A DNA stretch of 5,166 bases from a plasmid. Location of the stretch: assembly GCF_055900595.2 (NCBI RefSeq), contig NZ_JBVWEU010000008.1. The stretch is one strand, 5' to 3'. Below are positions 1,415 through 4,713 of this stretch, piece by piece (position 1 is the stretch's first letter; each line of letters opens with the position of its first letter). The notes beneath the pieces were generated by a model. That model saw nothing but the letters and a program-made list of their open reading frames with translations, did no database searches and was not told the DNA's origin. Position numbers and translations under genes: made by a program.

Positions 1415-1439
1415 GGTTTCAGCCCTCTGCAGGAGCGCA

Positions 1440-1480
1440 CTGTTTCTCGACGAAGGAGAGAAACATATAAGTGCGCTTCC
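1440..1480. other. oriT: oriT, RSF1010/MOBQ type (inverted repeat plus nic-site consensus)
   Basis: 8-bp inverted repeat TGTTTCTC (1441-1448) / GAGAAACA (1458-1465), followed by TAAGTGCGC (1468-1476). This closely resembles the RSF1010 oriT core as I recall it (GTTTCTCGAAGAGAAAC...TAAGTGCGCCCT, nick after TAAGTGCG). Lies between divergent mobA and mobC. Confidence 0.6.
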
Positions 1481-1590
1481 TTCTAATTTTACGAATTAGC
1501 ACGGAAGATACCCCCTGCACCCGCCGACCGCAAGCGATATACTGCACGACCACAACACACCGCAAAAAAACACCAGGGAGCATCACGAAC

Positions 1591-1989
1591 ATGCGCATCA
1601 GCAACATCGAATGGCTGAAGAAACGGATCGGATTCATCAGGAAGCTCGGAGAACAGACCGCACGACAGAGACAGATTATTGACCTGATCGACAACGAAGC
1701 CGGACTCACAGAACAGGAACGCAAACTTCTCCACGTACTGGCAACAGCGGAAAAAAACGACTTACAGGCACAGGAGAGCGAACGAAAACAGGCGGTCCAA
1801 AAACGAATCGAGGGAAAAAAACAACGACGGGAACGCAATCACCGGCTCTTTCTCGCGGCTGGGCTACTGATCGAAGCAGGACTGGTAGACACAAAAACAG
1901 GCGAGCTATGCTATAAAAAAGACAGGATATTACAGGCACTTAAGGAACTTAAGTACGATCTGGAGACATCCCCAAACCCAGACGCGTAA
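1591..1989 (+). CDS. mobC: MobC-like relaxosome accessory protein (132 aa)
   Basis: ATG at 1591 with GGGAG SD (1576-1580) 10 nt upstream; TAA at 1987-1989. Divergent from mobA across oriT, as in RSF1010. Segment KKQRRERNHRLFLAAGLLIEAGL resembles the conserved basic/hydrophobic core of RSF1010 MobC as recalled. The track ORF 1471..1989 (GTG start, no SD) is probably an artefactual N-terminal extension. Confidence 0.65.
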   Translation: MRISNIEWLKKRIGFIRKLGEQTARQRQIIDLIDNEAGLTEQERKLLHVLATAEKNDLQAQESERKQAVQKRIEGKKQRRERNHRLFLAAGLLIEAGLVDTKTGELCYKKDRILQALKELKYDLETSPNPDA

Positions 1990-2015
1990 GTGCCTCCATC
2001 CGTGTTCCGATTCCC

Positions 2016-2075
2016 TGGTGCTTCCTCGCTCATTCGCTCGCTACGCTCGGTCATGAGACTGCGGCGAGCACTACC
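2016..2075. other. ssi: Primosome assembly site (PriA-dependent ssi/pas), pBR322-like
   Basis: CTTCCTCGCTCATTCGCTCGCTACGCTCGGTCATGAGACTGCGGCGAGC is strongly similar to the ColE1/pBR322 sequence TTCCTCGCTCACTGACTCGCTGCGCTCGGTCGTTCGGCTGCGGCGAGCGG (recalled from common cloning-vector sequence), which corresponds to the n'-pas region. ColE2 plasmids are reported to carry ssi signals. Confidence 0.45.
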
Positions 2076-2139
2076 ACCACAATCACGCGGAAAGCCGCGC
2101 CATTGCAGGGCTGAACGGGGAAAAACGGCAAAAAACCTG

Positions 2140-2197
2140 CTGCTCAAAAAGACGCCAGAAAGGCGCTGTTATCTGATATAGGCTTATTTGGTCTACT
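2140..2197 (-). other. ori: ColE2-type origin of replication (Rep-binding / primer RNA site)
   Basis: Directly 3' of rep and overlapping its stop codon. The rep-sense strand reads TAGACCAAATAAGCCTATATCAGATAACAGCGCCTTTCTGGCGTCTTTTTGAGCAGC, which matches my recollection of the ColE2-P9 minimal origin (AGACCAGATAAGCC..TATCAGATAACAGCGCC..TTTGGCG). Confidence 0.6.
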
Positions 2198-3107
2198 CTA
2201 CGAGACCTCGTTTTTTCAGTTGGTAATACCAGGCGCGACTGATCCCTAATGCCTCCCACGGTTTCAGCGTGCGTGCAGATGTAGCTACTGTGCTGCGCTT
2301 AGACTTAGAACCGCCCTTGCGACCGCGTGCAGCCTGAATTTCTGGCGTGTGCGTATCAGCCACATACTGTGCGAAAGTTTCCGGCGTGAAGTTCCTGTGC
2401 GTGTATTTCGCAATGCTCTTGCCAATAGCCCGACATTCAGCCAGTGAAAGCGGAACGGGAAGCGATGCATTGTACATTTCGACACGCTGGATCACCGCTT
2501 CAAGCCACTGTGAGAACGCTGGCCAGCCCTGACGAATCGCCCTGTAAGCCCATTTGCGCGTCATTTCGAACAGGTGGCAGTTTCGCCCCATCCCGTAATG
2601 TTTATCGATGCTACGACGCTCTGAGGCGCTCAAATCGAGATAATCAGCCAGTTCATCGAGGGTATAGGCTTCCTCGCGCCACTCCATCACCAGCCATTCC
2701 AGGTGGAACGGATTTTTGCAAATCAGGCCGCTGTAGTTCACATCCGCACAAAGTTTCTCACACAGCGAACGTTCAACCGCTGCGGCATATTTCAGCGCCT
2801 TAACCGAGGCATCAGGCGCGGTTCTCACGGCGATGTTGAGTGCGTAGAGCAGGTGAGCGTGTCCGTTCACAGGATTTTTAACGGTGATGTTCGGCGCGGG
2901 AGCGTTCCGGTCGCTCCAGTCAATCGCAGCCCCCTCGCGGTCAACGTCAAAAACCAGCCAGAACTGTGCATGAGGCTGGTTCTGCTGGATATACCGTGCA
3001 AGAAGCGCGCGCCCTTTGCCGGAGATACGAAGGCCGAAAGCGAGATCATCCGTGTGATAGGGACGGTGGGGTAAATTTTCTTCGAAGTATTGAAGCGCGG
3101 CGCTCAT
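2193..3107 (-). CDS. rep: ColE2-type replication initiator Rep (primase-like, 304 aa)
   Basis: 304-aa ORF, ATG at 3107..3105 with AAGGA SD 10 nt upstream. Sequence (MSAALQYFEENLPHRPY..., FDVDREGAAIDWSDRNAPAPNITVKNPVNGHAHLLYAL, GKSIAKYTHR) matches my memory of the ColE2/ColE3 Rep family. Origin-like sequence lies immediately downstream, as in ColE2. Confidence 0.85.
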   Translation of the reverse strand: MSAALQYFEENLPHRPYHTDDLAFGLRISGKGRALLARYIQQNQPHAQFWLVFDVDREGAAIDWSDRNAPAPNITVKNPVNGHAHLLYALNIAVRTAPDASVKALKYAAAVERSLCEKLCADVNYSGLICKNPFHLEWLVMEWREEAYTLDELADYLDLSASERRSIDKHYGMGRNCHLFEMTRKWAYRAIRQGWPAFSQWLEAVIQRVEMYNASLPVPLSLAECRAIGKSIAKYTHRNFTPETFAQYVADTHTPEIQAARGRKGGSKSKRSTVATSARTLKPWEALGISRAWYYQLKKRGLVE

Positions 3108-3124
3108 GTGTTACGATTCCTTCC

Positions 3125-3203
3125 AGGTTATCGACCGACATCGCCCCTGTATTTTCGTGAAAGTCTTGGCGGATAGACACGAATTTCAGGGGCGTTTGTT
3201 TTT
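3125..3203 (+). ncRNA. Putative antisense RNA (RNAI-like) complementary to the rep mRNA leader
   Basis: Bipartite hairpin: outer stem CGCCCCTG (3142-3149) / CAGGGGCG (3187-3194), inner stem TTCGTG (3154-3159) / CACGAA (3178-3183), followed by TTTGTTTTT (3195-3203) on the + strand only. Candidate + promoter TTGAAG (3090-3095), 16-nt spacer, TGT-TACGAT (3109-3117) overlaps the rep start. The 5' end is a guess. Confidence 0.4.
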
Positions 3204-3262
3204 CAGTCGCTTACACTACCCCCAACGACAAAACCTGTCGAGCCTTCCCGCAAATCCGATCC

Positions 3263-3290
3263 ATTTACCATAACTCCCGTTGTACGTACC
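3263..3290 (-). other. cer-like XerC/XerD recombination core (multimer resolution site)
   Basis: Minus strand reads GGTACGTACAA-CGGGAG-TTATGGTAAAT. XerD arm is identical to the ColE1 cer XerD site (TTATGGTAAAT); XerC arm is 10/11 to cer GGTGCGTACAA. Central region is 6 bp. Confidence 0.65.
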
Positions 3291-3391
3291 ATGTAAAACG
3301 CCCTCAATCGCTTTCTGGCGCAAAAAACGCAAAAAGACAAGAAAACACCAGGCCAAACCAGAAAAACGCGTCAGAAACGTTTTCAGAGCGT

Positions 3392-3405
3392 TGCATAACT
3401 ATGCA
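3392..3405. promoter_or_regulatory. ARG-box-like palindrome (possible ArgR accessory site of the cer-like locus)
   Basis: TGCATA-AC-TATGCA palindrome, about 120 bp from the Xer crossover region on the XerC side, where cer carries its ArgR site. Pattern TGnAT-N4-ATnCA versus ARG-box TGAAT-N4-ATTCA. Confidence 0.3.
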
Positions 3406-3532
3406 CGAAAGCGATGTGCGATCGGTTTCGTGCGTTCTGAACACCGAACGGCTCAAAACGACAAGTTTTCTCCCCTGGTGCGTGGCGCTCTGACGGGGTT
3501 TCCTGTTTCCAAACTTCACATCTCGCCAGGAC

Positions 3533-3556
3533 AAAAAAAAACCGACCTGGGGTCGG
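3533..3556 (-). terminator. Rho-independent terminator (minus strand)
   Basis: Minus strand: CCGACC-CCA-GGTCGG followed by 9 T (seen on + as A9 then CCGACCTGGGGTCGG). Confidence 0.55.
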
Positions 3557-3691
3557 TGGCAAGAATCAGAGTCTATGGGAAATATTTTAGTTATCGGATG
3601 CTCAATATTCACAAACGCAAAAAATGCCTCAGTGATGCCCTAAAACAACCTTTCCAGAAGGAGTCCGCGCTTTACGATGCACGGAAGAGAT

Positions 3692-3713
3692 AAAAAACCC
3701 CACAAAAGTGGGG
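3692..3713 (-). terminator. Rho-independent terminator (minus strand) at the backbone/AT-rich boundary
   Basis: Minus strand: CCCCAC-TTTT-GTGGGG followed by TTTTTT. Confidence 0.5.
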
Positions 3714-3940
3714 AACCAAGAGAAACAACAATTACAGGTTGTTGGTTGTGTTCGAACAACGATGAAGTAGCTACGCTAAATAATAATTACCGTACAGGCC
3801 CTACATATTCAACACTAAATTTAAGATCCTGACGAAGGATTTATAAATGCACGAAAACACATAGACAGACAAATTCACTAAATTCATACACAAAAACAAG
3901 TGTAGTTTTCTAAGTAAATTAGATTCGACAACCAATTAGT

Positions 3941-3949
3941 TTATCCACA
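3941..3949 (+). promoter_or_regulatory. DnaA box consensus (TTATCCACA)
   Basis: Exact 9-mer TTATCCACA inside the A/C-rich tract. Only one copy seen, so function is unproven. Confidence 0.3.
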
Positions 3950-4097
3950 TCGCATTCCACTCTTGCTACACCAATCACATTTCTTGATATGTAATAGCAG
4001 AAAAAATAAAACCAGACACCAATAGACCAAAAAACAAACATTCAACAAGAAACATTTTGAACAATATCACAAAACTGTCACAACCATCATCAGACTT

Positions 4098-4126
4098 TTG
4101 AAAAAAACTGGTTGCTGTTTTATAAA
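4098..4126 (+). promoter_or_regulatory. Candidate sigma70 promoter (TTGAAA, 17-nt spacer, TATAAA)
   Basis: -35 TTGAAA at 4098-4103, 17-nt spacer, -10 TATAAA at 4121-4126. About 105 nt upstream of the + strand terminator at 4212-4236. Confidence 0.35.
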
Positions 4127-4132
4127 AGCGAC

Positions 4133-4237
4133 TGTAACAACCTCCACTCTATAGTTCCATTAGTTTAAAGTGTCACACAAACTGAGCATCCATTTGTTTT
4201 CCTTACTTTTGCCCCTGTATTCCAAGGGGTTTTTTTA
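4133..4237 (+). ncRNA. Candidate small RNA, module 1 (promoter to terminator, about 105 nt, no ORF)
   Basis: Predicted start about 7 nt after the -10 at 4121-4126. Contains ACACAAAC, then TTTTCCTTAC (4197-4206), then terminator hairpin. No ATG in the interval. Confidence 0.3.
4212..4236 (+). terminator. Rho-independent terminator (plus strand), module 1
   Basis: CCCCT (4212-4216) / AGGGG (4225-4229) stem with 8-nt loop, followed by TTTTTTT (4230-4236). Preceded by TCCTTAC at 4200-4206. Confidence 0.5.
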
Positions 4238-4467
4238 TAACTTAAAGATTAGCACACCACACAAAAACAATAAAAAAAAACGACAAGTTATACAATAAAA
4301 CCAGTACCATCCATACAGCTAATTACATATAAATACTATTAAACCATCTGGACATTAAAAATAAACTCTTATAACATAAAATTAATGCGGTTCCGGTACC
4401 ATATGTCAGGGATAATGTGCAAATGGAGGTATCGGAACTGCATTTCAGTTCATTATTAATTAATGAC

Positions 4468-4494
4468 AAAAAAAAACCTCTGCGAGCGCAGAGG
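4468..4494 (-). terminator. Rho-independent terminator (minus strand), module 3
   Basis: Minus strand: CCTCTGC-GCTC-GCAGAGG followed by 9 T (+ strand A-run 4468-4476). Preceded on the minus strand by TCCTTAC (+ coordinates 4503..4497). Confidence 0.65.
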
Positions 4495-4526
4495 GGGTAA
4501 GGAATGTTCCCGGTCATAATATGTCG
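4468..4526 (-). ncRNA. Candidate small RNA, module 3 (about 60 nt)
   Basis: Runs from the candidate minus-strand promoter (4533-4561) to the terminator at 4468-4494. Contains ATTCCTTACCCCC immediately 5' of the hairpin. Confidence 0.3.
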
Positions 4527-4532
4527 ATAGTG

Positions 4533-4561
4533 TTTATATACATACAGAACAAGAACAACAA
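4533..4561 (-). promoter_or_regulatory. Candidate sigma70 promoter on minus strand (TTGTTG, 17-nt spacer, TATAAA)
   Basis: Minus strand -35 TTGTTG (+ 4561..4556), 17-nt spacer, -10 TATAAA (+ 4538..4533). Directs transcription toward the 4468-4494 terminator. Confidence 0.35.
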
Positions 4562-4713
4562 CCAGCCAACTAATAAATATTTTATTTTTTAGAGCTGAAA
4601 CCTTAAAGCTCACTTCCATTCCATACATTGTTATAAACCTTATGTTGAAAACTGAAAGTAAGTACGGCAGACTTATTAAGTTGCGTGCAGTCTTTTCACG
4701 TTATACAAACAAG

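Follow-up and report, generated by a model that had tools for sequence, protein, structure and literature searches.

The intergenic region between mobA and a divergent accessory gene on a small enterobacterial plasmid very likely contains an origin of transfer (oriT). On the strength of its sequence, we assign positions ~1418-1509 to the oriT of a pSC101/RSF1010-type (MOBQ1-class) mobilization module, where all positions refer to the window, the whole stretch of 5166 bases that was analysed. The original prediction had described an RSF1010-like inverted repeat and nic consensus at 1441-1476. We found both there, as the repeat IR1 and the nick core TAAGTGCGC, and the arms, spacing, core and orientation match those of an RSF1010-type record (Table 1).

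Genetic context of the intergenic region

The window corresponds to a whole plasmid of ~5.16 kb. It aligns end to end, at 99.7-99.9% identity, with over 200 circular plasmids that measure 5162-5167 bp and come mostly from E. coli, with some from Klebsiella, Citrobacter and Shigella (for example, pJJ1886_2 and pSCU-175-5). PLSDB types the matching plasmids as mobilizable, MOBQ, with replicon Col156/rep_cluster_2131; the window plasmid is a ColE2-like (Col156), MOBQ-typed cryptic plasmid of the pJJ1886_2 type. Cryptic "MOBQ12" plasmids of ~5.2 kb are frequent in E. coli ST131, where they have been described as cryptic only, and the window plasmid fits them in size and content (Lanza et al., PMC4270462). 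Literature searches with plasmid names and with MOBQ12 plus oriT returned no experimental or functional study of this plasmid type, and none of the matching records has a feature annotated within 1415-1590.

Table 1. Features of the window plasmid and of its predicted oriT region.
Feature	Position	Strand	Details
mobA	488-1414	minus	GTG start at 1414; 308 aa
132-aa accessory gene	1591-1989	plus	ATG at 1591; divergent from mobA
ColE2-type rep	2193-3107	minus	PF03090 and PriCT_1
177-aa ORF in the mobX position	485-1, then 5166-5118	minus	directly downstream of mobA; spans the window ends
mobA/accessory-gene intergenic region	1415-1590		176 bp, the exact gap between the divergent start codons
Conserved unit, predicted oriT	1418-1509	plus	also kept by distant plasmids and by "orphan" copies lacking a relaxase
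Outer repeat, left arm AGCGCACT	1434-1441	plus	8 nt, 100% complementary to 1470-1477
IR1 TGTTTCTC / GAGAAACA	1441-1448 / 1458-1465	plus	8-nt arms, 100% complementary; 9-nt loop
Nick core TAAGTGCGC	1468-1476	plus	predicted nick between G1475 and C1476
Outer repeat, right arm AGTGCGCT	1470-1477	plus	AGTGCG/CT, spanning the predicted nick (slash)
IR2	1476-1507	plus	outer CTTCC/GGAAG; inner CTAATT 1483-1488 / AATTAG 1494-1499; begins at nick+1
Candidate -10 hexamer TATACT of the accessory gene	1538-1543	plus	putative

On one side of the region lies a relaxase gene. The original prediction had assumed a relaxase of the MOBQ class, and the mobA product is indeed a genuine MobA homolog: it matches the Pfam family MobA_MobL (PF03389, E 3e-30), is 43% identical to the relaxase domain of RSF1010 MobA (E 2e-53) and aligns with the sequence of the minMobA crystal structure (PDB 2NS6, E 3e-38). 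Its similarity to pSC101 MobA is greater still (54% identity, E 5e-87). The protein consists of the MOBQ relaxase domain only, without a primase domain. Residues Y22, E71/E73 and H108/H121/H123 align with Y25, E74/E76 and H112/H120/H122 of RSF1010 MobA, all of which appear in the published list of its catalytic residues (PMC6856555). As is characteristic of MOBQ1-type oriTs, the candidate origin therefore adjoins a MobA/MobL-family relaxase with a catalytic tyrosine and a three-histidine motif.

The gene on the other side had been taken for mobC. Its position is equivalent to that of mobC, but similarity to RSF1010 MobC could not be demonstrated. BLASTP aligned the 132-aa protein neither with RSF1010 MobC nor with the MobC of MOBQ4 plasmids, and an hhalign comparison of a seven-sequence profile with RSF1010 MobC gave a weak match (E 0.006, probability 6%) that aligned on an ERK..R..(L/V)..G motif. 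Scans for known families found nothing in Pfam at E <= 0.01 and no relevant family in NCBIfam at E <= 1; with the Pfam threshold relaxed to E <= 10, the only match was TraD (PF06412), at 14.2 bits and under the 22.3-bit cutoff. Direct comparisons were more informative. The protein is 37% identical to the product of a pSC101 gene annotated TraD (E 7e-13) and 29% identical (E 9e-10) to the TraD of a Shigella plasmid, a protein scoring above the PF06412 threshold, and both of these genes occupy the same genomic position as the 132-aa gene. The TraD-like set, including the 132-aa protein, aligns over its full length and has the motif (E/R)R..R(N/D/T)H.L...(A/L)GL..(V/E/L)AGL in common. Despite its own sub-threshold score, the protein thus counts among the TraD-like accessory proteins (PF06412) through its clear homology to these two. 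Because of its identity to the pSC101 TraD and to the PF06412-passing Shigella TraD, we assign the 132-aa gene, by sequence comparison, as a diverged TraD-like relaxosome accessory gene that is positionally equivalent to mobC.

When translated across the window ends, the ORF downstream of mobA is identical to the reference at 178 of 178 positions; identical plasmids list it as a hypothetical protein, and a Pfam search with it returned no significant family. It resembles pSC101 MobX only weakly (24% over 138 aa, E 0.002) but agrees with it in position and size. A hydrophobic segment lies close to its C-terminus. On the replicon side, an Rfam search of the whole window found nothing in the oriT. 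Its sole match was a sub-threshold one to PK-repBA in the leader of the ColE2-type rep (3072-3195, minus strand; 26 bits versus a gathering score of 45, E 0.011), which may mark an antisense-RNA or translational control region of the replicon.

Anatomy of the predicted oriT

Aligning the region with the RSF1010 oriT shows GTTTCTC/GAGAAAC arms, a spacing of 11 nt between AGAAAC and the nick, and TAAGTGCGC in common. The RSF1010 oriT-mobC sequence used for this comparison is 100% identical to IncQ1 records in the plasmid collection. In the RSF1010-type record (L002), the oriT CCAGTTTCTCGAAGAGAAACCGGTAAGTGCGCCCT lies at 2501-2535 on the strand reading towards mobC, from which mobA diverges. IR1 is presumed to be the relaxase-binding hairpin. 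The core TAAGTGCGC has a single match in the window, even with one mismatch permitted, and the composite pattern GTTTCTC-N(3-15)-GAGAAAC-N4-AAGTGCGC occurs once (1442-1476, plus strand) and in 0 of 200 dinucleotide-preserving shuffles. Folded as single-stranded DNA, 1425-1515 reaches -17.7 kcal/mol, compared to -7.8 +/- 2.1 for shuffled sequences (z = -4.6).

RSF1010 is nicked at TAAGTGCG/CCCT, as listed in a table of substrates (PMC4814116), and the homologous nick in the window is therefore predicted to fall between G1475 and C1476. This is also where the original prediction had put it. By analogy with RSF1010/R1162 and pSC101, we infer not only the position of the nick but also its strand, the polarity of transfer, the roles of the accessory proteins and the overlap of the oriT with mob promoters.

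A second hairpin, IR2, begins at the first base past the predicted nick. The CTAATT/AATTAG palindrome noticed earlier is present and turns out to be the inner part of this larger structure. IR2 is imperfect (CTTCC..CTAATT TTACG AATTAG..GGAAG) and more stable than its shuffles (z = -3.2). In the MobA-anchored set of related loci, 14 of 17 likewise have a hairpin that starts from the first base 3' of the predicted nick, with sequences that are unrelated between lineages. When species-representative genomes were scanned more widely by pattern, a hairpin start was placed at nick+1 or nick+2 in 36 of 60 nick-core-like loci, compared to 12 of 48 control matches. By analogy, IR2 would form the leading end of the transferred strand, and it could be a binding site of the accessory protein.

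The description of the region as a 176-bp divergent promoter region is accurate as to the gap, which is exact, but a strict scan for sigma-70 consensus promoters and terminators over 1350-1650 found no sites. That divergent promoters lie within 1415-1590 is suggested by the gene arrangement. The candidate -10 hexamer upstream of the accessory gene, which the strict scan missed, is part of a block (ACCGCAAG..ATATACT) that has been kept in three diverged lineages.

We rejected a third, GC-rich hairpin at ~1421-1434 (CCCTCTGCAGGAG), 5' of the outer repeat, as no more stable than shuffled sequences (mean z -0.6). It overlaps the likely ribosome-binding site of mobA, and similar hairpins are found 5' of the oriT in many relatives.

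Conservation across related loci

A tblastn search with the relaxase domain of the window matched 1475 plasmids. From these we fetched 16 loci whose relaxase domains are 38-80% identical to that of the window at the amino acid level; one ended before the core and one was without it, leaving 14 with a readable oriT core, to which we added RSF1010 and MOBQ4 records. All 14 loci and the RSF1010-type record contain the GTTTCT/AGAAAC repeat, the 11-nt spacing and the core, on the strand reading away from mobA. Overall, 16 of 16 MOBQ1-type loci have 11 nt between AGAAAC and the nick, and the GTTTCT/AGAAAC arms are conserved in 16 MobA-linked loci. The core itself reads TAAG(T/C)GCGC or a near variant (TAAGCGCAC, TAAGTGGGC, CAAGTGCGA) in the fetched loci and the RSF1010 record. 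The arms of IR1 show compensatory change: the closing base pair is T:A, A:T or C:G depending on the locus, and in one lineage a G:C pair has become C:G, giving CTTTCT/AGAAAG. The window has the arrangement typical of MOBQ1-type oriTs, with an inverted repeat followed at a fixed distance by the core (T)AAGTGCG/C. On the strand leading away from mobA towards the accessory gene, the repeat is 5' of the nick, as in the RSF1010-type record and in pSC101 (L022).

More distant plasmids keep a smaller part of the region. When the 176-bp region was used as a blastn query, the most distant plasmids kept only query positions 3/4-66, which correspond to 1417/1418-1480 of the window. Moreover, the oriT unit is present on two 2-kb plasmids that code for nothing but a Rep protein, L143 (CP056926.1, 2063 bp, at ~1047-1130) and L144 (CP093118.1, 2295 bp, at ~187-275). 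Each copy consists of the 5' flank, IR1, TAAGTGCGC or TAAGTGCAC, and a second hairpin, and tblastn of both plasmids detected no similarity to MobA. These orphan copies amount to a natural deletion series and delimit the putative functional unit to about 1418-1509. They also make L143 and L144 candidates for mobilisation by a relaxase acting in trans.

At the other end of the scale, plasmids of E. coli, Klebsiella, Citrobacter and Shigella carry the 176-bp region with 100% identity. Of 5426 complete E. coli genomes, 433 contain it, in each case plasmid-borne and unannotated. This distribution is consistent with active horizontal spread.

Two further matches deserve mention in their own right. 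An 82-kb E. coli plasmid (L145, NZ_OZ547118.1) carries a related mobA-oriT-traD module at 1909-4690, with the core TAAGTGCAC and ~1.2 kb separating the oriT from the TraD-like gene; it has the appearance of a small plasmid that was captured or cointegrated. The scan pattern was also matched by a repeat of ~80 nt, GATCAGAAGGACACY-GTTTCTCGTTAGAGAAAC-TCTTAAGATAAACAACAGTGTCC-GCACTATTTCGAGTGCG, on ten contigs of one Synergistaceae metagenome-assembled genome (L077-L086). This repeat contains nested inverted repeats, has no MobA close by and is apparently unrelated to the oriT; it may be a dispersed repeat element.

An outer repeat spans the predicted nick

IR1 is enclosed by a second pair of complementary arms, the right one of which overlaps the nick core. 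These outer arms are paired in the minimum free energy fold, and shuffling the flank alone abolished the extra stability of that fold (0 of 300 shuffles). The two arms also vary together. Among 51 dereplicated loci, the core TGCGC is accompanied by a flank ending in CGCAC in 15 of 16 cases, and the core CGCGC by one ending in CGCGC or CGCGT in 14 of 19. Further pairs are TGGGC with GCCCAC and TGGCGC with GCGCCAC. When flanks and cores were paired at random, the observed complementarity was reached in 0 of 1000 permutations. The related loci considered here are numbered L006-L020 and L023-L142 in our collection.

RSF1010 differs in this respect. It has no such flank beside IR1, and the complement of its nick core lies ~24 nt further upstream, where GAGAGCGCAC is a 9/10 complement of GTGCGCCCTC; in the window, the complement abuts IR1. 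A tentative and somewhat doubtful reading is that, in the pSC101-like branch, complementarity between the nick core and the 6-8 nt directly 5' of IR1 is maintained and that the outer stem is a functional element, so far undescribed. Such a stem might serve as an intrastrand clamp or splint, keeping the two ends in place to be rejoined, or it might gate nicking. The covariation fits intrastrand pairing or a symmetric protein-binding site alike.

Comparison with characterised mobilization systems

The window and RSF1010/R1162 (IncQ1, MOBQ11) agree in the arms of the inverted repeat, the TAAGTGCGC core and the 11-nt spacing. In both, the nick strand reads towards the accessory gene, mobA lies upstream and diverges, and a hairpin is found just 3' of the nick, and the relaxase domains, 43% identical, have the same catalytic residues. 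The differences lie in the details around this common plan. The IR1 loop is 3 nt in RSF1010 and 9 nt in the window, and the sequence 3' of the nick is CCCTCC in RSF1010 and CTTCC in the window. Unlike RSF1010, the window plasmid has a MobA without a primase domain and without a nested mobB, and an accessory gene without demonstrable similarity to MobC.

The description "RSF1010-like" names the right oriT family, but the closest characterised relative of the module is pSC101. The pSC101 mobilization region, which comprises mobA, mobX, a divergent "traD" and the oriT, has reportedly been characterised by Meyer in 2000. The order of elements (mobX-like gene, mobA, oriT, TraD-like gene) is the same in the window, with MobA 54% and the accessory protein 37% identical. 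The pSC101 oriT reads GCGCAC-GTTTCT...AGAAAG-TCTAAGTGCGC, followed by a hairpin CCCTGATAA...TTATCAGGG, so that the plan of outer flank, IR1, core and IR2 is common to both plasmids. They differ in their replicons (pSC101 Rep versus the ColE2-like/Col156 type), in the unrelated sequences of IR2, in the length of MobA (371 aa in pSC101 and 308 aa in the window) and in the MobX-like protein, which is barely similar (E 0.002). Because MobA is closer to that of pSC101, the layout is the same and the oriTs are very similar, the label that fits the window module best is a pSC101-type member of the RSF1010 oriT family.

MOBQ4 plasmids such as pIGWZ12, pE2022_4 and ColE9-J are small enterobacterial plasmids too, some with a ColE2-like replicon, and they have the ATAAGTGCGC core and a GCAGG-GCGCAC 5' flank in common with the window. 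In a four-way alignment of the window with RSF1010 and MOBQ4 plasmids, the nick core is invariant. However, the MOBQ4 relaxase is only 26% identical to that of the window, its inverted repeat has ACAATC/GATTGT arms and its MobC is unrelated. We considered filing the window plasmid under MOBQ4 and ruled this out: the relaxases of that family have an average identity of 84% (Garcillan-Barcia et al. 2019, PMC6856555), the 26% identity of the window's relaxase and its different inverted repeat set it apart, and it is missing from Table S2 of that study.

The experiments on MOBQ4 support the window oriT by analogy only. There, the oriT was experimentally proven to be the ~178-bp gap between divergent mobA and mobC genes (Garcillan-Barcia et al. 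2019, PMC6856555). Both sub-fragments were inactive when this oriT was split, mobC was stimulatory and non-essential, and the relaxases worked ~1000-fold better in cis (PMC6856555). In view of this cis preference and of the inactive sub-fragments, a cloned minimal fragment of the window might score poorly even if the oriT is genuine.

Discussion

Our analysis points to the following scheme for transfer of the window plasmid. MobA would recognise the IR1 hairpin (1441-1465) at its base, along with the core TAAGTGCG in single-stranded form. Its Tyr22 would then cut the plus strand between G1475 and C1476 and stay attached to the 5' end at C1476. A helper conjugative plasmid would export the plus strand 5'->3', so that IR2 and the accessory gene leave first and mobA last, after which MobA would rejoin the ends at the regenerated IR1-core. 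The TraD-like protein, and possibly the MobX-like protein too, would assist in forming the relaxosome.

Repeats between divergent genes invite a regulatory explanation, in which they serve only as operator or promoter elements for autoregulation of the two promoters and the likeness to an oriT is a decayed, non-functional relic. The transcription of both genes must start within the 176-bp gap, a block containing TATACT is conserved near the accessory gene, and covarying palindromes would also be expected of binding sites for dimeric proteins. Nevertheless, we regard this explanation as very improbable. The core is invariant and the 11-nt spacing exact next to relaxases that have diverged down to 38% identity, and the unit is retained on Rep-only plasmids, where there are no mob genes for it to regulate. 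The adjacent relaxase has all of its catalytic residues, and identical copies of the region occur in four genera. A regulatory role is, in addition, compatible with one in transfer: in RSF1010, the mob promoters and the oriT overlap, and both roles coexist.

The region could also be a functional oriT that is nicked elsewhere, either on the minus strand, where GTGCGC follows the inverted repeat (from 1441 down to 1436), or at a shifted position of the plus-strand core. The outer repeat does lend the site a near-symmetry (AGCGCACT at 1434-1441 versus AGTGCGCT at 1470-1477), and the sequence 3' of the predicted nick is unlike that of RSF1010, but the minus-strand copy has neither the conserved TAAG nor the 11-nt spacing, whereas the full core with the correct spacing is on the strand leading away from mobA in 16 of 16 MobA-linked loci. 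A nick outside the predicted position is very improbable. As for a chance resemblance to the RSF1010 oriT in an intergenic region, TAAGTGCGC with at most one mismatch is expected ~1.2 times per shuffled window. The composite pattern, in contrast, appeared in none of the 200 shuffles, lies in the right orientation beside a MobA homolog and is conserved in hundreds of plasmids, and we consider the probability of coincidence negligible. The preferred reading remains an oriT of the pSC101/RSF1010 type with its nick between G1475 and C1476.

Very probably, then, the window oriT is an ordinary, hitherto unannotated member of a well-known family, which introduces no new principle and follows the established MOBQ relaxase/oriT scheme. 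The sole aspect that possibly deserves a specialist's second look is the covarying outer repeat across the nick. The plasmid type is very common, yet its oriT is unannotated in the records. The predicted oriT and nick placement would explain the spread of this "cryptic" 5-kb plasmid and point to a helper-dependent step, and the 2-kb Rep-only plasmids with the same oriT could ride on a relaxase supplied in trans.
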